The notes under the pieces are model-generated. The model had not been told where the DNA came from and ran no database searches. It worked only from the letters and a program-made list of their open reading frames with translations. From Candidatus Heimdallarchaeota archaeon (GTDB lineage Archaea; Asgardarchaeota; Heimdallarchaeia; JABLTI01), in contig JAUWKS010000004.1 of assembly GCA_030614005.1 (NCBI GenBank), forward strand, positions 18,840 through 50,839: a stretch of 32,000 bases of DNA, written 5' to 3'. Of the stretch, positions 4,221 through 29,021 are shown in pieces. A program made the position numbers and the translations under genes. The stretch's first letter is position 1. The number at the start of each line of letters is the position of its first letter.

Positions 4221-7200
4221 ATGACAAAAAATAGGATAGTTAAAGGATCAATAGTAATGATCATCACCCTTCTATTTATGGCTATGACTATTTCGACAGC
4301 ACAACTTAAAGCTACAACAGTAGACGAAAGTAAAGTACAAATTGCTGATGCGGAATATACAGGAAGCCAATACATAGAAGGAATTGATATCTATCCGCTA
4401 AAGGATACTGCTATAGGAGTTAATGTAGGATTCATTGGTGGAACTGTTGAATTGCCTTTTGATGTTACAACATATAGTAATTTAGAAGCTTTGAATTTGA
4501 TCGTTGCAAATCAAGCAGCCTGGCGAATGCATTCTCAAAGAAGATTCTGGGATGTTTCGGACGGAACATCACTGATGTTAGTCTTTAGAGGATTAACAAC
4601 CGGCGAATCCCTCACTCAAGGGAATGCTATTGCAGCAATGATCGAAACAGCTTATAATTTCTCATTAAGCCTAGTATTTGGTCAATGGGAAGCAGGACTC
4701 GAAATATCTATTCTCGTATATCAAGGAAGAATAGCTGATGAAAGTGTATTTGATTCATTCACAGATGACTTTACCAGTTATGTGTCTGACGATGGATTTG
4801 GCGAAGGAATTACTTCAAGTGTGCTAAACAATGCACCTGTTAAAGCCATGGGTGTTTCATTAGTGAAAGGTAGATATTTACTAATGCAACCTGCTTTAGG
4901 TCTTATTCCAGTACTTGAGTGTGCTTGGATTGATCCTGATGGATTAGAGAAAGATGGTACAGTTATTGATGTAAGCTTGCTCAATATTATGCCTGATTTA
5001 ACTGAAGTTAGTGGGGCAGCAAATGCACTTGCAAGTATAGTCAAATTGGATTTACCATATGTCGTTGATGTTTTAGTAGTTGACCCTGATACGGATAATA
5101 TGTATCCTCATCTCAAAGGTAAATTTGAATGGGTTGTAAAAGTTGATCTTCCTATTTGGCAACGAGATGAAACATATGATGATATTTTTGTCTCCTATGA
5201 TCTTAATTTAAGTGACATGCGTTCTTATCCCCAAGTTATTGGTGAATTATCTCTAAATGCAAGTTTACCATTTAATGGTGGACAAGATATTGAATATATA
5301 TTCACCTGGGAGAACGTTGGCGCTGAAACGGCATACAATGTAACTCTCTCTTATGGAGAGTTTGCTTATGATGAATTGGATGGTTTTTCACTTCTCGTTG
5401 AAAACCCTGATTTAACCTTTGATGAAAACAAAATTATTTATTGCAACACTACAGATGGATATATTTCAGAAGCATTGCTTATTGGTTCAGATATCTGTTC
5501 AATTGAAGGATGGTTCTATAATGACACATCTGCCTCTTGGTTAGGAGTTGGTGGATATTATCCAGGTGAGAATTTAGACTATCTCATAAGTTTAGCCTAT
5601 ACTGAACAAACATACTTGCATCTAGATGTTGGAGATTTCGAGAAAACAAATCTCACAGATATTGAAGACGCATTCACTTTAACAACAACAATAGACGAAT
5701 TAGCTCCTGGAGAGAATGTAACCAAGAGTTTTGCTGTTAGAGATTTACCAACAGGTACTGTTAATATCTATAATTCAACTACAGGAACAATAACAAACGC
5801 CACTATTTTCATACAAGATTCTCCAAACTGGGAAGAATATTTCACTCTCATGTTGAGAATGCATGGTTCTTCATTACATATTCCTGAAGATCAAGTTACT
5901 TGGACTAATTGGTTCCCACAAGAAGTTGTTGGGTCAGCTTATGTCTATACTGAAGCTGATGGCACAGAATACATGGGATTGACAAATGGCTTAGTAATAC
6001 AAATATATGATGACGAAGCAGTTTTGGTTGGGAAAGTTAGTTTAGACAAAGATGTTTATACATTTGGTGAGAACGTAACCTTCACTTTAGAGCTTGAAAA
6101 CATCGGCAATGCAAATGCAACAGATGTGGATTATCAATTCTATCATGCATTTATTACAGATGATTTAGAATTAGGTTATATTCACGAGATTCTTGGATCA
6201 GAAGGAACTATACCATTAATTAAACCAGGTGAAACTGTTACAGTAGAATACACTGAAACAGCTACAACTAACATTGGTTTACATCCAGTGTTCGCTGTCT
6301 TCGGATATACAAGCGATGAACCCGGCACTGACCCAAGAGATGTTCCCACACCTTTACCTTGGTATCTAACTGAAGGTCTGTCAGAAGCACAAGTCAATTT
6401 TATTGAGGCGTTGGTTTATGCCAATCCAATATTCAATACTACCAGACACAATGCTGTTATTAGTTCCATGGATTTTGGATTAGTTTTACCACCTCCAAGC
6501 AAAGAAGGTACAACACAACCAACTTATCCAACACCAGAAGTTGAAGTTACAACTGAACTTCTCGGTTTAACAAATGATACTACAATTGGAGATGAATTAA
6601 CTCTTAGAACAACGATTACCAATGTTGGAGATGAACCAACAAATATAATCTATTTACAGAGAATTCCATCTAGCTTAGGTTTCGTAGCAGATACTGATAG
6701 CGTTACCGTTGAAGGAGTTGCAGTCTCTTACGATAAAGCTTGGGTTAACCCTCCATATTTCGGTATGACTATGGGCATTATAGCAGGTGACTTAACTACT
6801 CCCGTTGGAGCAATCGGTGTTCCACTTGATGTAAATGAGACAATGGTTATTGAAGTAACACTAGAAGTCAAAACAAGTGGTGAAATCTTCATTCCATCCG
6901 CAGAGATTCGTTACAACAGTGCTTACGATATGACAACACGCAATGGAATAAATGATGATTCATCTGCTCCAACTAATGAAACACAAACTGCGATGTTGAA
7001 TGGGCTTTATGCTACAAGTAAATCTAGCGATATAACAGCGGATCTTTCCATAAATGACATAGGTGACGGATCAGATAGGGCATCCACAAATAGTTGGGGT
7101 TCCTATTCCGATAGTTTAACTTTTGCCATACAATCACTTAGTGACCTTAATCCTAACTGGCGTAACTTCATCTATATTGGTGTAGGACTTATCGCAGTTA

Positions 7201-7250
7201 CAGGTGTAGCAGTGCTTATCTATTTCCGTGCAAACGGCAAAAAGCATTAA
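4221..7250 (+). CDS. Large secreted, C-terminally membrane-anchored surface protein with CARDB/DUF11-like beta-sandwich modules; predicted glycoprotein
   Basis: The N-terminal region MTKNRIVKGSIVMIITLLFMAMTISTAQ has a positive n-region plus a hydrophobic core. The C-terminal FIYIGVGLIAVTGVAVLIYFRANGKKH is a TM helix with a basic tail. Three modules carry the signature xENVGxxxAxNV: WENVGAETAYNVTL near 5301-5350, LENIGNANATDVDY near 6089-6130 and ITNVGDEPTNIIYL near 6613-6645. I counted about 16 N-x-S/T sequons by hand. Confidence 0.65.
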   Translation: MTKNRIVKGSIVMIITLLFMAMTISTAQLKATTVDESKVQIADAEYTGSQYIEGIDIYPLKDTAIGVNVGFIGGTVELPFDVTTYSNLEALNLIVANQAAWRMHSQRRFWDVSDGTSLMLVFRGLTTGESLTQGNAIAAMIETAYNFSLSLVFGQWEAGLEISILVYQGRIADESVFDSFTDDFTSYVSDDGFGEGITSSVLNNAPVKAMGVSLVKGRYLLMQPALGLIPVLECAWIDPDGLEKDGTVIDVSLLNIMPDLTEVSGAANALASIVKLDLPYVVDVLVVDPDTDNMYPHLKGKFEWVVKVDLPIWQRDETYDDIFVSYDLNLSDMRSYPQVIGELSLNASLPFNGGQDIEYIFTWENVGAETAYNVTLSYGEFAYDELDGFSLLVENPDLTFDENKIIYCNTTDGYISEALLIGSDICSIEGWFYNDTSASWLGVGGYYPGENLDYLISLAYTEQTYLHLDVGDFEKTNLTDIEDAFTLTTTIDELAPGENVTKSFAVRDLPTGTVNIYNSTTGTITNATIFIQDSPNWEEYFTLMLRMHGSSLHIPEDQVTWTNWFPQEVVGSAYVYTEADGTEYMGLTNGLVIQIYDDEAVLVGKVSLDKDVYTFGENVTFTLELENIGNANATDVDYQFYHAFITDDLELGYIHEILGSEGTIPLIKPGETVTVEYTETATTNIGLHPVFAVFGYTSDEPGTDPRDVPTPLPWYLTEGLSEAQVNFIEALVYANPIFNTTRHNAVISSMDFGLVLPPPSKEGTTQPTYPTPEVEVTTELLGLTNDTTIGDELTLRTTITNVGDEPTNIIYLQRIPSSLGFVADTDSVTVEGVAVSYDKAWVNPPYFGMTMGIIAGDLTTPVGAIGVPLDVNETMVIEVTLEVKTSGEIFIPSAEIRYNSAYDMTTRNGINDDSSAPTNETQTAMLNGLYATSKSSDITADLSINDIGDGSDRASTNSWGSYSDSLTFAIQSLSDLNPNWRNFIYIGVGLIAVTGVAVLIYFRANGKKH

Positions 7251-7415: not shown

Positions 7416-9356
7416 ATGTCAATGAAAGAAGTTAGTTCTGATTACTTACGGGCTCGCGGTTTAAGTGAATCTGAGATTTTGGTTTATTCCACAGTATTGG
7501 GTCTTGGTAATGCTACTATTGGAGAAATAAACTTAGCTATTAAAATGGAACTTCCTGAGATTTATATTCAAATTAAGCAATTAGAGGAGATTAGCTATAT
7601 CAAGAAACTCCCCGGTAAAGTCCCCCGCTACATTGCTATGGAACCCTTCTTGAAAGATTATGCACAGCTAAGTTCTGAAGTTAAACTAGGACTGTTAAGC
7701 ATTAAGGATAATTTTCATACTCAAGTAAATGAGTTTAATACAAAAATCAAAACTGTTGTTCCGCAATTAGCGGATTTTTGCGAGCTGGAAAAAAACACCA
7801 GAACTGATGAGTTAGCAAAGAAATACGATAAATTAGAGCACAGTTTGAATCAAATGGTTGATAACAATTTTCAGCAACTGAACCATTTGGGCGTAGCCCT
7901 TAGCACATGGCCCTCTGACAGTATTGAAAAAACATTACCTGCTTTTGAGGGAGATTTAGAGACAAGTAAGGATAATTTTGTTGGGGCAATTTCCAAATAT
8001 GCTGACTCTCTAGTTATAGATTCTAGAGAGATAAGAGATAAATTAGAGAAATCAACAATTCACCATAAAATTCTTGTTGCAGAAAGGCTTGAGAAATTAA
8101 AAAGAGATATTGAAGATTCTCTTGCCGAACTTCGTGACAATATAGTAAAACAAAATTTCACAATAACATCTAGCTATAGTGCAAATCTTGACGAGAAAGA
8201 TGTCACTGCAAGGGAAAACGCTGCTCAAATTATCAGCGATTTAATCAAGAACGTAGTTATTCTTGCACGTGATATGGAGGGTGATATTAGTAGTCATACT
8301 TCTCAAATGATAAATAATTCACTTGGCCCATTATTTAGGCAATTTGATTTTCTTCAAAGTGAAGTTAAAACTACACTTGGAACACTCCTCGAAGAGCACT
8401 CAGAAGAAGTAACAAAATTCGTTCGATATGTAAATCATACAGTTGAATCTACAGTACCGGATGTTTTGGAATTAGTAACCACTCATCTTGAAGAGAGCAG
8501 AGATGAATCAGCTAGATTTATTGACCAAAAAATAACTGATCCCTTCAAAGAACTTGAAAAAATGAAAGGTGATATTGCTCAAGATATTTCTCAATTTAAG
8601 GAAAACATCACTAAAGAAGCACATAAACAAGATGAAGTTGCTCGTGCTTCGATTACAGATAGGCTTGCAAAAATTGAGGAAAAAGTTGACCTAAGTAAAC
8701 TAGAAATCAAAGATATAATATCACTTTCAAGGATAGACACCGAAGATATCATTCAAAATCTTATTAAGAATATTATCAATGAAAATTCAGATAAAATTAA
8801 TGCAACGACAACAATAATGCAAGAAGCAGGAAACAAATTAGATAATACTCTCGGAAATACTATTTTCCTTCTTGATGATTCTGGAAAAACCTTTGATGGC
8901 ATTGTCAATATGTCTGAGAAAGTTATGCCTCTAGCAGATCTCGAAATCAGTCTAATTTATGGCAATGAATGTATAGTTCGTGCAATGAAAGATATGCTCT
9001 TACGTGCGAAAGAAGAAATCACTATTATCACCCCTGAAATACTCACCGATTTCCTTTATGAAATTGAGAAGCAACCACAGGTAACTAATTATCAGCTTGT
9101 TTCCAAAATTAAAGAAGAAGATGTAAGTTTACTGACCTCTTTGGTTAAACGAGGAAATGTCAACACGATGAATTACAAAGGAATGGATTATTGGATTGCA
9201 ATTAAAGACAACGAAGAAATTCTTTTTGCACCAAGAATACATCCTGAGAAAAATATTGCTTTTATCACCACAAATCCTAAATTATTCCAACTCTTCTTTG
9301 ATTTAACAAATCAGAAAGTCTTTTCACAAATGAAAGCTCAAGAATTTCAATCCTAG
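7416..9356 (+). CDS. TrmB-family winged-helix regulator with a ~400-aa helical/coiled-coil insertion between the N-terminal wHTH and the TrmB-type C-terminal domain
   Basis: The N-terminal LRARGLSESEILVYSTVLGLGNATIGEINLAIKMELPEIYIQIKQLEEISYIKKLPGKVPRYIAMEP fits the TrmB wHTH pattern. The C-terminal IYGNECIVRAMKDMLLRAKEEITIITPE...LVKRGNVNTM...AIKDNEEILFAP resembles the TrmB C-terminal (PLD-like) domain. The middle region is charged and helix-prone. A GAGGA Shine-Dalgarno sequence lies 8 nt upstream of the ATG. Confidence 0.6.
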   Translation: MSMKEVSSDYLRARGLSESEILVYSTVLGLGNATIGEINLAIKMELPEIYIQIKQLEEISYIKKLPGKVPRYIAMEPFLKDYAQLSSEVKLGLLSIKDNFHTQVNEFNTKIKTVVPQLADFCELEKNTRTDELAKKYDKLEHSLNQMVDNNFQQLNHLGVALSTWPSDSIEKTLPAFEGDLETSKDNFVGAISKYADSLVIDSREIRDKLEKSTIHHKILVAERLEKLKRDIEDSLAELRDNIVKQNFTITSSYSANLDEKDVTARENAAQIISDLIKNVVILARDMEGDISSHTSQMINNSLGPLFRQFDFLQSEVKTTLGTLLEEHSEEVTKFVRYVNHTVESTVPDVLELVTTHLEESRDESARFIDQKITDPFKELEKMKGDIAQDISQFKENITKEAHKQDEVARASITDRLAKIEEKVDLSKLEIKDIISLSRIDTEDIIQNLIKNIINENSDKINATTTIMQEAGNKLDNTLGNTIFLLDDSGKTFDGIVNMSEKVMPLADLEISLIYGNECIVRAMKDMLLRAKEEITIITPEILTDFLYEIEKQPQVTNYQLVSKIKEEDVSLLTSLVKRGNVNTMNYKGMDYWIAIKDNEEILFAPRIHPEKNIAFITTNPKLFQLFFDLTNQKVFSQMKAQEFQS

Positions 9357-21761: not shown

Positions 21762-22721
21762 ATGCATACAGAACAAGAATTGGAGATGGAAATAGAAAAA
21801 GTTCTAATTGCTGGATTAGATAATGCCGGGAAAAGCTCAATTCAAGATATATTGAAATATATCCCAATTGAAGCTGCGCAGAGAAGAACACCGAGTAAAG
21901 ATCTTGAGATATCAGAAAAAAAATTCTTAAAAAAGAAGTATATCTTTTTCATTCCACCAGGACAAGAAGATTTACGGTTGAAAGAATTTCATGGTACAAT
22001 GAAAAATGAGTATTTTGAAAATGTTAGTACGTTCATTTTTGTTGTTGATTCATCTGAAATTGAAAGAGTAAATGAAGCTAGAGAAGAGTTACAAAGATCA
22101 ATTGAAGATCTAATGCTGCTTTCTCCTGAATGTAAAAAATTTATTCTTCTTGCTCATAAACAAGATCTAGACGAAGCTGAAAATGGGTTATCTCTCAAAA
22201 AGCAAATTCTCGATCCTTTAAATCATCTTTTTCCAAATATTATTTATCAATTCAAAATATTTGAAACAACACTCTTTAGTCCTGAGACAATTCATGAACC
22301 ATTTGTAAAAGTTATTGCTAAACATGTTGGTATAAATAGATTCGATTTTGATAAATTGGCTGAATGGGTTCGAAAGCAAACGAATGCTAAAATCGTTCTT
22401 GTTACTGACCCCAATGGGTTACTCATTGGAGAATCATTTACAGGTATTGAAAATTCCACTGTTTTTGCTGCTTATGTAGCAAAAATTTTCTCTGCTATTG
22501 AAGACTTTCAAGCAGATTTAGAAGTTGGAGGGATAAAAATTATTGTCCTTGAGGATGAAGATGAGTCAAATTATAGTATAGTATCCAGAATTAATTGCAC
22601 AAAAGATGATTATTTAGCACTTTTAATTGGATTTCCAAAAACGCAAATTGGGATGACGAGAATCATAAATCGCACAGGGTTAAGTCATTTGAAGGATGCT
22701 TATAATAGCTATAAGACTTAA
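21762..22721 (+). CDS. Arf-family small GTPase fused to a C-terminal Roadblock/LC7 (MglB-like) domain
   Basis: G1 is GLDNAGKS (21813-21836). FVVDSSEIERVNEAREEL closely matches my recollection of human ARF1 (FVVDSNDRERVNEAREEL). G4 is HKQD. The C-terminal ~120 aa (KIVLVTDPNGLLIGESF...GGIKIIVLEDEDESNYSIVSRI...DDYLALLIGFPKTQIG) fit the Roadblock/LC7 pattern. The start could instead be the internal ATG at 21786. Confidence 0.8.
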   Translation: MHTEQELEMEIEKVLIAGLDNAGKSSIQDILKYIPIEAAQRRTPSKDLEISEKKFLKKKYIFFIPPGQEDLRLKEFHGTMKNEYFENVSTFIFVVDSSEIERVNEAREELQRSIEDLMLLSPECKKFILLAHKQDLDEAENGLSLKKQILDPLNHLFPNIIYQFKIFETTLFSPETIHEPFVKVIAKHVGINRFDFDKLAEWVRKQTNAKIVLVTDPNGLLIGESFTGIENSTVFAAYVAKIFSAIEDFQADLEVGGIKIIVLEDEDESNYSIVSRINCTKDDYLALLIGFPKTQIGMTRIINRTGLSHLKDAYNSYKT

Positions 22722-22771: not shown

Positions 22772-23833
22772 ATGATTACAAGTACAAAGTTGGGCATAAT
22801 TCTTGTTGAATTTGATTCACTTAAAGGACCAGTTATTCGAAATAAAAATCCAAAGAATTTTCAAATTCCAAATGAAACAAATGATGAAAATTTACTTATG
22901 TGGATATTAAGAGCAAATGAGTTCTCTGTTCGAAAAATTGGAAAGCAAACAGCATTTGCAAAAGCTATTTCTTTGGATGACCCAAATTTTCCTAGAAAGA
23001 AAAGACAGTTTGGATTAGGATTAATAGCTCAACCAACTATAGATTTGATTGAAGCAGAGAAAATCTTAGATTTAATTATTTCTACAAGTAAAAAAATAAG
23101 TAATAATAAACCATACTTTAAGATGCTAAATGGATTATTAACTTCAATTGCTAATTTCATAATTCCAAGTGAATTCAGCAATAGTGAAACTCTATCACCT
23201 CAAGAAAGAAAACCAATGAGCAGAATTCAAAATGAAATTATTCTGAAGCAAGAAACACCACGTATGCTAATTAGTAACAAATTTAATGTATTTCAAAAAG
23301 TAGTCATTTCTTCAAAGCAATCAAATTATACCATTTCTATTGGAAACAAAGAAACCTCCCTTGAATTAGAAAGAAATACTTCACATAAAGAAATGAGCAT
23401 TTCTACAGAAAAAATGAAAATTGATGTTGTAGTTCAAAAAGATATTCCGGAGAACTTACAGATAGGGCTAGATATTTTTTCAAGAATACTAGATGTTGTA
23501 ATAGATATATCAAATATTGAGAATAGGGTAGTATCCAGTTTGGAGTTTTTGGATAGATTACTACTTGAAGATGTTGATATTCACTATTACATGCCTTTCT
23601 CACAATACCTAGTTGCAATGGAAGCATATACCATATCTGAATTTAAAAATGAAGAAATTGAAGATCAAATTGCTAATTTCAAAGATACATACGGAGAATG
23701 GGTAGAGTGTATAATTGGAAAGGAATTTGATGGAAAAAAATTAGCTGAATTTTTCACTGTAACAGGTATAACACGTGAGAGTTTAGAATTACTGATTGAC
23801 CTATTATTTGTGAAACTTGTTGCAATCTTTTAA
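22772..23833 (+). CDS. Hypothetical protein with longin-like (FLCN/DENN-type) N-terminal domain pattern; possible GTPase regulator
   Basis: LGIILVEFDSLKGPVIRNKNP, then the helix NDENLLMWILRAN, then TAFAKAISLDDPNFPRKKRQFGLGLIAQP, then the helix DLIEAEKILDLIISTSKKI. This gives a beta-beta-alpha-beta-beta-beta-alpha order. It lies 50 nt downstream of the GTPase gene, with GGTG upstream of the ATG. The domain call is by eye only. Confidence 0.4.
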   Translation: MITSTKLGIILVEFDSLKGPVIRNKNPKNFQIPNETNDENLLMWILRANEFSVRKIGKQTAFAKAISLDDPNFPRKKRQFGLGLIAQPTIDLIEAEKILDLIISTSKKISNNKPYFKMLNGLLTSIANFIIPSEFSNSETLSPQERKPMSRIQNEIILKQETPRMLISNKFNVFQKVVISSKQSNYTISIGNKETSLELERNTSHKEMSISTEKMKIDVVVQKDIPENLQIGLDIFSRILDVVIDISNIENRVVSSLEFLDRLLLEDVDIHYYMPFSQYLVAMEAYTISEFKNEEIEDQIANFKDTYGEWVECIIGKEFDGKKLAEFFTVTGITRESLELLIDLLFVKLVAIF

Positions 23834-26238: not shown

Positions 26239-27522
26239 TTATAAATTAAATAATAATAGGGCAATGTTGCCATACAACAAATACTGAATATACCCTAAGA
26301 ACATTAGAGAAACAAAAGGTATTCCAGGTGTAACCCAAACTGATTTCTTGTGTTGTTTTCTTAGCTGCCAGAGAGTTCGCAATTGTCTTTGCTCCATAAC
26401 ATCATCTTCATCTAAGCCCATTCTTATTTTGAGTTGCCAATCTTGAGAGTTCTTTGTAGTGTTACCATTCATTTTTCCTTTTGATGACTGACCTTCAAAA
26501 TCGCCAGCTAATTTACCAATCATTTTTCCAGATAATTGACCTTCGAAAATTCCTTCAAGTGTACCAATAAAACATCCTTTAATTGGATGAGTATATCTAC
26601 CATCAATATTGATTAGATATTCATTGGGTTCCAAAGCTACCTCTTCGGTTTCTTCAAAAGTTCCACGATATTTCATTAAGAGAGCAGTAACCGTTTCATC
26701 GTCATCATCATCTTTTCTGAGCTCTAATGCTTTTGTAAGACGTTCAGCTTTTGTAATAGCATTCTCAAGAGTTAATTTCTCGAAATTTTCAGTATCAGCC
26801 AATTGAATTACTCCAATTACTTTTCCTGTAAATTCACCTATTAATTCACCATCGAAAATTCCAAGGAATTTCCCATCTAATCGACCTTCAAAGTTACCTT
26901 CAAAATTGCCCGAGAACTCCTTATCGGTGAATTCTTCTAGAAAATCAAAATGTAATTTTTTCTCATTAATTTTGCTTACAGGTTTCTTATATCCGAAGAA
27001 GAAGCATCTGATTTTTTGGGATGCAGTACCCCTTACTTCATTAAAGAGCGATTCCTTTGATGCAGAAATAGCATTTACTACCATAAGAATTAGTGGATAG
27101 AAAATAGCTATAAGACCAGCATTCAGTAACAATGAGAATACCATTGAGTCAATAATGTTTATTATCAATAAATCAGGTAAGTTGATGTTTACTAAATTAG
27201 TAGTAAGAGGATTAACAGGAGTAAGTATCGAGAGTGCCCAAAGTGCTTTGGTATCTGCTCCACCCCATACACCAAGATAAAATAAAATAAAGCCTATTAA
27301 AAATCCTAAAACAACAGTAATTAGGATGAGAAGCAGAGCATTATTTTGATCCTCGGCATTAATAACATACAAAGTATCCATTACTAATCCTATGATAACC
27401 ATAAGGACCCATACTATCTCTCTTCGAACCTCTCTGTGGAGAATATCTTCAATTCCTGCATAAAGTAAAGCAGCAAGAGTAACTGTGGGAACTATAATTG
27501 AATAAACAAGTTCGAATGACAT
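26239..27522 (-). CDS. A24-family prepilin/preflagellin-type aspartic peptidase with a ~235-aa soluble insertion
   Basis: First catalytic-Asp context is AGIEDILHREVRREI (D26, TM1). The second is GVWGGADTKALWAL (D89, GxGD-like). The protein has multiple TM helices and a terminal VWVTPGIPFVSLMFLGY helix. Residues ~156-393 are hydrophilic. Confidence 0.75.
   Translation of the reverse strand: MSFELVYSIIVPTVTLAALLYAGIEDILHREVRREIVWVLMVIIGLVMDTLYVINAEDQNNALLLILITVVLGFLIGFILFYLGVWGGADTKALWALSILTPVNPLTTNLVNINLPDLLIINIIDSMVFSLLLNAGLIAIFYPLILMVVNAISASKESLFNEVRGTASQKIRCFFFGYKKPVSKINEKKLHFDFLEEFTDKEFSGNFEGNFEGRLDGKFLGIFDGELIGEFTGKVIGVIQLADTENFEKLTLENAITKAERLTKALELRKDDDDDETVTALLMKYRGTFEETEEVALEPNEYLINIDGRYTHPIKGCFIGTLEGIFEGQLSGKMIGKLAGDFEGQSSKGKMNGNTTKNSQDWQLKIRMGLDEDDVMEQRQLRTLWQLRKQHKKSVWVTPGIPFVSLMFLGYIQYLLYGNIALLLFNL
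26464..26577 (-). repeat. Coding tetrad repeat block 2 in the peptidase insert
   Basis: aa 316-353 read G CFIG TLEG IFEG QLSG KMIG KLAG DFEG QSSKG KMNG. Eight Gly lie at exact 4-residue spacing, followed by two more. Confidence 0.85.
26812..26916 (-). repeat. Coding tetrad repeat block 1 in the peptidase insert: nine Gly at exact 4-residue spacing
   Basis: aa 203-237 read FSG NFEG NFEG RLDG KFLG IFDG ELIG EFTG KVIG. I verified the reverse complement of 26881-26916 as F S G N F E G N F E G R. Confidence 0.85.
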
Positions 27523-28571: not shown

Positions 28572-29021
28572 TCACTCTATAAGTTTTTCAGTACCACAAA
28601 TAATACAAAATTGTTCAGCGGAAAGGGGTTGGCCACATAAAGAACAAGTCATTCCTTGATACAATGTTGAAGAAGCTACTTCACCTGTTTCTTCATCAAA
28701 AAAAACTTTTAGTTTACCTTGACCACGTAGAGTTAGTATAAGTTCGCGCAAATCAGAAATTTCAATATTTAGATCTATTGAAAGTTTGGTCAAACTAATT
28801 CGCTCATTTTCCATTGTGGAAATATATTTCAAAAGCACTCTATCAGAAACTATACTATCAAAGATACCTAGTAAACCGATAACGACCAATATTATGCCTG
28901 GAATTATCATCCAAATATCACCAGGGATAAGAGTAAAACTGGGTGCAATTGAAGCCCAAATGATAAAAAGTATACCTAATACGCTGCTTGTAATGAACCA
29001 AATAAAGTGATTTTCACGCAT
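28572..29021 (-). CDS. Small membrane protein: two N-terminal TM helices, wHTH-like segment, C-terminal CxxC-x8-CxxC zinc ribbon
   Basis: The TM helices are FIWFITSSVLGILFIIWASIA and IWMIIPGIILVVIGLLGIF. The wHTH-like segment is ISLTKLSIDLNIEISDLRELILTLRGQGKLKV. The zinc ribbon is CSLCGQPLSAEQFCIICG. GGTG lies upstream of the ATG. Confidence 0.55.
   Translation of the reverse strand: MRENHFIWFITSSVLGILFIIWASIAPSFTLIPGDIWMIIPGIILVVIGLLGIFDSIVSDRVLLKYISTMENERISLTKLSIDLNIEISDLRELILTLRGQGKLKVFFDEETGEVASSTLYQGMTCSLCGQPLSAEQFCIICGTEKLIE

Follow-up and report, generated by a model that had tools for sequence, protein, structure and literature searches.

The gatekeepers of every archaeal type-IV-filament structure are the class III signal peptidases, GxGD intramembrane proteases in one family with presenilin; to our knowledge, no member of this GxGD/class III signal peptidase family carries a long structured cytoplasmic appendage. 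The stretch of DNA analysed here, 32,000 nucleotides of a Candidatus Heimdallarchaeota archaeon (contig JAUWKS010000004.1, hereafter the window), encodes a 427-residue peptidase of this kind, in which an insert with two blocks of glycine tetrads (G-x-Φ-x, Φ being a hydrophobic residue) lies ahead of the last transmembrane (TM) helix. This insert is a real, conserved and lineage-specific elaboration of a known enzyme family, and its repeat could be placed in no described family. The cell biology of Heimdallarchaeia is of special interest for eukaryogenesis; this is the archaeal lineage closest to eukaryotes.

The sole solved relative is the preflagellin peptidase FlaK of Methanococcus maripaludis (PDB 3S0X; MEROPS A24B), a GxGD intramembrane aspartyl protease made of six TM helices along with a domain that is exposed to solvent and comprises four antiparallel beta strands (PMC4985597), whose active site is on the cytoplasmic side (PMC4307647). 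The window peptidase resembles FlaK in its TM core, in both catalytic Asp residues, in having a cytoplasmic beta domain that follows TM5 and precedes the last TM helix, and in the WVTPG(I/L)PF sequence that leads into TM6. On the contrary, FlaK has ~27 residues (chain 173–200) where the window peptidase has ~200 (aa 188–391), and the GxGD motif of FlaK is replaced by GGAD, the GxHyD variant that an archaellum review reports for ~60% of archaeal genomes (PMC4307647). Both enzymes differ as well in their surroundings, since the window peptidase has no archaellum or pilus gene neighbourhood. Its nearest insert-free relatives are short A24 peptidases (~235–258 aa; from Methanosarcinales and the metagenomic P0040–P0042), which share ~30–36% core identity and the same Pfam domains but are devoid of aa ~200–375, the tetrads being absent from all 68 such loci in a regular-expression scan.

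A FlaK relative with an enlarged cytoplasmic domain

The peptidase is encoded by one uninterrupted open reading frame (ORF), and its assignment to the A24 family, proposed in a previous sequence-only reading of the same DNA, is well supported: aa 14–143 reach 32.6 bits with Pfam PF01478 (Peptidase_A24), whose cut-off is 26.5, and the sequence of 3s0x is matched with an expectation value (E) of 1.8e-7. Foldseek comparison of the full AlphaFold2 (AF2) model with 3s0x_A gave E 1e-3, prob 1.00 and a TM-score of 0.54 on the target, and a six-TM fold with a cytoplasmic beta domain between TM5 and TM6 fits the AF2 secondary-structure layout, this domain being hugely extended. The score obtained with the NCBIfam FlaK equivalog NF040695, 74.2 bits, does not reach the equivalog level set by its cut-off of 330, so that the protein is classed by these profiles as a FlaK relative rather than as FlaK itself. 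The archaeal A24 C-terminal domain type II (PF06847, Arc_PepC_II), present in the precomputed hits of nearly all homologues, scored 29.7 bits against a cut-off of 29.9, with aa 376–419 covering positions 47–92 of the 93 in the profile, namely its second half only. The insert thus appears, from the profile alignment, to split the PF06847 domain.

In agreement with the sequence-only reading, both catalytic Asp contexts are N-terminal to the insert, which occupies the site of the small cytoplasmic beta domain of FlaK. Across 34 sequences, no variation is seen at G87, G88 and D90, and A89 is conserved in at least 90% of them. The enzyme is predicted to be catalytically intact, as both Asp contexts are kept, and to cleave class III signal peptides (prepilin/prearchaellin). 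Three Arg residues in the loop that follows TM1, together with the K/R-rich segments bordering the insert, agree with a cytoplasmic location of the latter. Window positions 26344–27057 do correspond to aa 156–393, as previously stated; nonetheless, the span that had been described as a ~235-aa insert is the whole cytoplasmic domain, and the part that is extra relative to FlaK and to the 254-aa homologues comprises ~aa 190–375, within which the stalk and tip described below (aa 192–349) are contained.

The glycine tetrads and their predicted fold

Translation confirmed the pattern that had drawn attention to the insert. Block 1 contains nine Gly residues at an exact spacing of 4 (205, 209, 213, 217, 221, 225, 229, 233 and 237) and block 2 eight of them (316, 320, 324, 328, 332, 336, 340 and 344), with extra Gly at 349 and 353, while the linker between both blocks includes DDDDDE (D271–E276). 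At +2 of Gly, block 1 shows the hydrophobic residues F, F, L, F, F, L, F and V, and block 2 likewise F, L, F, L, M, L and F. When aa 156–393 were shuffled 100,000 times, the longest spacing-4 Gly run was 7 and appeared twice, against the observed run of 9 plus a second one of 8. Tandem Repeats Finder detected no DNA-level tandem repeat in the insert region, and Gly is encoded there by a mixture of codons (GGT, GGA, GGC and GGG), which argues against a product of recent slippage. The eight in-phase Gly of block 2 stand, but the family alignment shows that this block starts in phase earlier than previously proposed, at G308, position 312 being Gly in 18/31 homologues and His in the lineage of the window. 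H312 (window 26587–26589), which replaces an in-phase Gly, is followed by Pro313, and the AF2 strand is shortly interrupted at 311–313. Beyond the peptidase gene, a regular-expression scan of the window and 80 loci retrieved no other ORF with tetrads.

AF2 modelling of the full protein (34-sequence alignment) gave a mean predicted local distance difference test (pLDDT) of 81 and a predicted TM-score (pTM) of 0.70, and modelling of the soluble domain alone (27 sequences) a pLDDT of 80.6 and a pTM of 0.75, both models displaying the same continuous strands. The tetrad strands reach pLDDT values of 85–95, the acidic tip loop remains below 50, and the linker 271–294 is predicted to be disordered, whereas residues 167–181 and 350–364, helix 373–389 and strand 394–399 make up a small membrane-proximal domain. 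As a 40-residue strand can pair, within a monomer, with nothing but the second long one, the insert probably folds as a two-stranded antiparallel beta-ribbon that starts from a base at the membrane and has aa 240/301 as its far end. This structure is mainly drawn from the AF2 prediction and from covariation in ~31 related sequences.

All antiparallel registers i+j=c were then scanned across the family for charge complementarity and mutual information. Register c=541, which places residue 240 opposite 301, produced 93 opposite-charge versus 17 like-charge cells, the next best one giving 74 versus 40 and most others values near zero or negative, and it also showed the highest mean mutual information of the registers scanned. 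Its complementarity score of 101 is to be compared with 46.5 ± 8.8, and a maximum of 75, in 2000 permutations of the partner sequences, a control in which phylogeny is ignored. Charge pairs in this register include R214:E/D327, K218:E/D323, E208:K333 and D193:K348. Swapped charges are also observed, pair 226:315 being EK in 11 sequences, KE in 6 and KK in 1, and pair 212:329 EK in 6 and KE in 4, with swaps in at least two clades for the former and in one for the latter.

Since the blocks are beta strands in the models, Gly and the hydrophobic residue at +2 share the same strand face rather than opposite ones. In register 541, G:G rungs are formed at 205:336, 209:332, 213:328, 217:324, 221:320, 225:316, 229:312 and 233:308, and Φ:Φ rungs at 203:338, 207:334, 211:330, 215:326, 219:322, 223:318, 227:314, 231:310 and 235:306. 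One face of the modelled ribbon is, therefore, a ladder of G:G rungs alternating with Phe/Leu/Ile:Phe/Leu/Ile ones, while the opposite face presents cross-strand K/R–D/E salt bridges and a few T/I/L pairs. The laddered part would measure ~11.5 nm and the whole ribbon up to ~16 nm, that is, about 12–16 nm if straight (35–49 residues at ~3.3 Å each).

Residues 192–240 and 301–349 are exactly 49 aa long each, with zero indels, in 31/31 aligned homologues, and their mean identities to the window protein (0.59 and 0.53) are near that of the TM core (0.61), in contrast with the 0.27 of the tip (aa 241–300). Gly occupies 96–100% of the block 1 Gly columns and a mean of 97% (range 87–100%) of those in block 2, while the +2 columns contain Phe in 57% (block 1) and 46% (block 2) of cases and F/L/I/V/M/Y in at least 94%. 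The tip is 57–64 aa long, has a net charge of −5 to −11 in 10/11 homologues sampled, and contains a conserved L282/Y285/R286 motif. Coordinates are collected in Table 1.

Table 1. Position in the window of the peptidase gene and of its observed and predicted parts
Feature	Window position	Strand	Basis
Complete coding sequence, FlaK-type A24/class III signal peptidase with insert, 427 aa	26239..27522	(-)	ORF list; Pfam PF01478 and PF06847; FlaK 3s0x by sequence and fold
TM catalytic core, aa 1–156 (TM1–TM5)	27055..27522	(-)	AF2 helices 3–29, 36–55, 59–82, 88–100, 119–139, 141–156; hydropathy; aligns with FlaK residues 15–173
Catalytic Asp 1 (D26), cytoplasmic end of TM1	27445..27447	(-)	Invariant in 34 sequences; aligns with Asp of FlaK 'VQDF'
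GGAD (G87–D90), GxHyD variant of GxGD, with catalytic Asp 2 (D90)	27253..27264	(-)	Aligns with FlaK GGGD
N-terminal part of ancestral cytoplasmic domain, aa 157–191	26950..27054	(-)	AF2 helix 167–176, strand 178–181; FlaK alignment reaches aa 188
Predicted outgoing ribbon strand, aa 192–240, with tetrad block 1 (aa 203–237, window 26812–26916)	26803..26949	(-)	AF2 strands 192–198, 201–240, pLDDT 85–95; 49 aa without indels in 31 homologues
Distal tip, aa 241–300: helix 252–267, acidic low-confidence loop (D271–E276, window 26695–26712), helix 280–289 with L282/Y285/R286	26623..26802	(-)	AF2; conserved columns
Predicted returning ribbon strand, aa 301–349, with tetrad block 2 (aa 308–344, window 26491–26601)	26476..26622	(-)	AF2 strands 301–310, 314–345; register i+j=541 with aa 192–240
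C-terminal part of ancestral cytoplasmic domain, aa 350–399, with conserved helix 373–389 (MExRQLRTLWQL)	26326..26475	(-)	AF2; Arc_PepC_II aa 376–419; conservation
Last TM helix (TM6), aa 400–427, with conserved PG(I/L)PF at its start	26242..26325	(-)	AF2 helices 403–417, 420–426; aligns with FlaK 200–228

A probable ribbon stalk and the explanations weighed against it

On balance, we lean towards a FlaK-type peptidase whose cytoplasmic beta domain is extended into a fixed-length ribbon stalk with a variable tip. The small beta domain between TM5 and TM6 would have grown by ~160 residues in the Heimdallarchaeial peptidase, with aa 192–240 leading away from the membrane and aa 301–349 returning to it, both paired at i+j=541, and the variable, acidic and partly helical tip (aa 241–300) would close the end of the ribbon. 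Invariant Gly residues in strands usually mark spots where something packs directly onto the backbone, and the ~18 hydrophobic side chains standing between invariant Gly are implausible as solvent-exposed ones, so that the ladder face is probably buried. Such burial might be achieved by self-association of two or more stalks, with Phe ridges fitting in Gly grooves, or by a partner protein, and would turn the ribbon into a rigid rod of fixed length. The rod could then oligomerise the peptidase and/or work beneath the membrane as spacer or docking arm, without taking part in catalysis. We infer the burial of the ladder face, the oligomeric state, the scaffold role and the length from the modelled ribbon, and an oligomerisation or scaffold function of the stalk is put forward here only tentatively.

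The fact that both strands are strictly 49 residues long while the tip varies suggests that the rod itself is the selected element. In addition, a stalk of fixed length and as conserved as the catalytic core points to a selected mechanical or organisational role in Heimdallarchaeia, which might consist in oligomerisation, spacing or sub-membrane recruitment. A more speculative proposal, which we regard as possible though rather doubtful, is that the G-x-Φ-x ladder represents an undescribed self-associating beta-ribbon repeat, a glycine/aromatic 'beta zipper' forming a fixed rod of 49+49 residues that would act as oligomeriser, molecular ruler or docking arm for a type-IV-filament or other sub-membrane machine, the same design having been reached convergently by the two-block hairpins of P0150, P0107 and P0075. 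Whatever the function, such a strict G/aromatic ladder, if carried by a two-stranded ribbon, would represent a new and very simple rigid beta-rod building block that could be of interest for protein design, and it is easily tested on a soluble fragment of ~240 aa. Long exposed beta strands, as well as Gly placed beside aromatics on one sheet face, are familiar from OspA, SasG, cylindrin and the 'aromatic rescue' of Gly. Nonetheless, we know of no elongated beta structure with a strict 4-residue G/Φ ladder of 9–10 rungs, and of none on an intramembrane protease. Similarly, the literature searched for inserts in Asgard/Heimdall signal peptidases, for tetrapeptide repeats and for Gly/aromatic ribbons did not yield any account of such a feature.

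Several points weigh against the stalk and the roles envisaged for it: (i) the AF2 prediction and the register test draw on the same family alignment of ~31 related sequences, (ii) the permutation control takes no account of phylogeny, (iii) the poor conservation of the distal tip weakens a specific docking role for it, (iv) when a partner or substrate was sought in the neighbourhood of the peptidase, no pilin, ATPase or platform gene was found, only housekeeping ones, and no substrate gene was identified in the window, and (v) AF2 monomer models of obligate oligomeric beta-solenoids, such as VgrG, are known to be wrong in some cases (PMC10584680).

The last of these points also favours the best-surviving alternative, which is that the insert forms an obligate oligomeric beta-solenoid or prism, with several chains intertwined as in the trimeric T4 gp5/VgrG needle, the hairpin of the AF2 monomer being an artefact. 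The insert profile retrieves hundreds of proteins with G-[ND]-[VLI]-[TS] tetrad arrays, for which PHROG gives matches to tail-fibre profiles and to gp5-like ones ('baseplate hub'), and Pfam a weak match to Gp5_trimer_C. These phage tail-fibre-like arrays and the T4 gp5C/VgrG triple beta-helix have in common with the insert the period of 4, the Gly with a hydrophobic residue at +2 and the beta-rich rod character, and in the gp5-type octad VxGxxxxx the odd positions point inward, as would suit alternating G and Φ. However, with limits of E<=1 for Pfam and E<=1e-3 for PHROGs, the window protein matches none of those profiles, PF22178 and PHROG 430 of the gp5C/VgrG type included, and the residue classes differ, the fibres having V/T and N/D where the insert has F and charged residues. 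Membrane anchoring at either end of the insert forces the chain out and back, and the covariation between block 1 and block 2 is antiparallel, whereas gp5-type sheets are parallel and gp5C-type arrays are extracellular, trimeric and built of parallel intertwined chains. Moreover, a trimer of hairpins arranged as a six-stranded tube would still include the ribbon, and an oligomer of hairpins is fully possible. Altogether, the intertwined solenoid is considered unlikely; homology of the insert with the phage tetrad arrays is unlikely too, and their resemblance looks like convergence on a simple repeat.

Somewhat less probable is an amphipathic ribbon lying flat on, or inserted in, the cytoplasmic leaflet as an outrigger or membrane-shaping element. 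In its favour, one face of the ribbon is a hydrophobic/Gly ladder, and TM5 and TM6 tether the base to the membrane, but the net charge of the blocks, about −6 to +4, comes with no basic or Trp/Tyr belt, and the tip is strongly acidic.

The sequence-only reading had noted that, as a helix, the pattern would give a glycine-zipper stripe opposite an aromatic one. On this view, each block would be an alpha-helix packed through its GxxxG stripe against its counterpart, much like the Gly-zipper helical hairpins known from small membrane lipoproteins. Glycine zippers (GxxxGxxxG; Gly-zipper_Omp, Gly-zipper_YMGG, Gly-zipper_OmpA; e.g., SlyB) do place Gly at every fourth residue, phmmer gives a weak match to SlyB 7ojf (E 0.24), and antiparallel contacts between blocks are expected in a helical hairpin too. 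Nonetheless, glycine zippers are short helical membrane motifs, while the insert contains 9–10 in-phase tetrads, is charged and soluble and is predicted to be beta, with high pLDDT in both the full-protein and the soluble-domain runs. A period of exactly 4.0 over 33–37 residues fits a 2-residue beta repeat and not a 3.6-residue helix; on geometrical grounds, not on a computed model, the stripe would turn ~40 degrees per tetrad and complete a full turn over nine tetrads, so that two helices could not remain zipped over that length. The blocks consist of Gly to 25%, and their context is charged, soluble and F/I/V/T-rich, which by established propensities disfavours helix, and K/E/D/R at the x positions are not those of membrane helices. 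No Pfam Gly-zipper family (PF13488, PF13441, PF13436) is matched at E<=1. With a single antiparallel register and Gly and +2 residues on one face of the strand, the helical proposal is not supported and is deemed very improbable.

A similarly small chance is given to a flexible low-complexity linker without defined fold, whose periodicity would come from replication slippage. Tetrads are simple in sequence and part of the linker between the blocks is predicted to be disordered, but the mixed codons and the lack of a DNA tandem repeat, the identical 49-aa lengths maintained without indels in homologues down to 43% identity, a conservation equal to that of the catalytic core, the invariant Gly and Φ columns and the paired charge covariation are not those of a linker. 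A disordered spacer is, thus, rejected on account of its fixed, indel-free 49-aa strands and a conservation near that of the TM core. Finally, an assembly or annotation artefact, either a chimeric contig or a frameshifted fusion, has nothing in its favour and is practically excluded, since the same architecture and length recur as a single ORF with conserved synteny in ~38 proteins from independent NCBI, JGI, ENA and Logan assemblies.

Distribution, similar repeats and neighbouring genes

Orthologous peptidases were inspected for the insert, which the sequence-only reading had recommended. A word-indexed search retrieved 42 proteins, ~38 of which are full-length homologues that contain it (417–491 aa, 43–88% identity over the full length) and that, where they carry a name, come mostly from Heimdallarchaeota or 'Asgard group' metagenome-assembled genomes, with one labelled Thorarchaeota and one Bathyarchaeia; three relatives of 254–258 aa in this set are without insert. 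When one genome per GTDB species is considered, the long form is restricted to about 11 Heimdallarchaeota/Promethearchaeati (loci L001–L012), and the next relatives are Methanosarcinales enzymes of ~235 aa, with ~30% identity and no insert. Two of the long homologues, P0018 (491 aa) and P0037 (455 aa, with a 22-aa N-terminal extension in the alignment), exceed the usual 417–433 aa, their extra length being due, maybe, to start-codon miscalls or to real extensions.

The earlier statement that the tetrads fit no known repeat family was corroborated in Pfam, NCBIfam, PHROGs, the PDB sequence profile search and Foldseek. For the insert, scans of the protein with Pfam, NCBIfam and PHROG profiles, and of 16 insert sequences with Pfam, produced nothing but noise (Jacalin at E 0.04, halo-CC-star, FliH). 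When the PDB was searched with the insert by sequence and by profile, all that came up were period-4 tracts of low complexity, namely GQMP in an ARID protein and NGHM in Plasmodium pyridoxal kinase, which are not homologues. Foldseek searches of the PDB and BFVD with the full and soluble-domain models recovered only FlaK, for the TM core, and no PDB analogue of the insert, the best hit having E 0.56 and the TM-score being at most 0.14. Pentapeptide and hexapeptide solenoids gave no Pfam hits, and the period is exactly 4 in both blocks, not 5 or 6. The bactofilin beta-helix (PF04519) is alike in being a cytoplasmic Gly- and hydrophobic-rich beta repeat, but it is a parallel solenoid with a period of ~6 per strand and 18 per turn instead of 4, and the window protein gives no hit to it at E<=1; some sporadic tetrad proteins do give sub-threshold bactofilin hits.

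Against 1.84 billion representatives, the insert profile yielded 390 hits at E<=1e-3, which beyond the family are compositional or periodicity matches. A first group of hits comprises large G-[ND]-[VLI]-[TS] array proteins with features of phage tail fibres: tail-collar regions, a chaperone domain of the S74 type, and matches to tail-fibre and gp5-like hub profiles of PHROG. Very long tetrad arrays are present in P0043, P0044, P0045, P0054, P0057, P0063, P0070, P0073 and P0077, and Pfam covers them through spurious Gly-zipper_YMGG/Omp/OmpA matches above threshold, which reflect periodicity only; these phage-fibre-like arrays seem to be without a repeat family of their own. A second group consists of sporadic singletons with F-type charged tetrads, often in two blocks with a short linker. 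Among them, P0150 (GKLEGKFEGKLEG...GKFEGILIGKFEGKFLG), P0107, P0075 and P0163, a dinoflagellate transcript, show a hairpin-like two-block layout as in the peptidase insert and belong to no Pfam family. Proteins of both groups are regarded as convergent period-4 beta repeats and not as homologues. For the analogue P0161, a weak match to the beta-flower Pfam families was rejected, the fold of these being a short-stranded barrel (PMC10584680).

Gene order is common to all long-form loci: EF-1alpha, PadR, a hypothetical protein, a DHDPS-like protein, the peptidase, an FAD protein, a metallophosphoesterase, a hypothetical protein, an Arf/Gtr1-like GTPase and RpoB. This conserved synteny mirrors lineage, not function. 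The label Candidatus Bathyarchaeia given to locus L008 (DATKZI010000039.1) is probably wrong, as this contig shares the ten-gene synteny of the Heimdall loci and its RpoB is 90% identical to that of the window.

Other ORFs of the window are also worth recording. Two without Pfam match adjoin the peptidase locus, namely 28572–29021 (-) of 149 aa, present in 9/10 Heimdall loci, and 22772–23833 (+) of 353 aa, present in 7/10, with 37–84% identity. The 319-aa ORF at 21762–22721 (+), syntenic with the peptidase in all long-form loci, matches Arf, Gtr1/RagA and SRP-receptor-beta small GTPases, and is thus a eukaryote-like small GTPase of the kind typical of Asgard genomes. For the 1009-aa ORF at 4221–7250 (+), Pfam yields a single hit, a weak one at aa 600–678 (E 1.6e-8) to translocon-associated protein beta (TRAP-beta), and this ORF may be a eukaryote-like signature protein. 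At 7416–9356 (+), a 646-aa ORF combines an N-terminal TrmB-type winged helix with a long downstream region whose only matches are apolipoprotein-like helical repeats, and may correspond to a coiled-coil transcription-regulator fusion.

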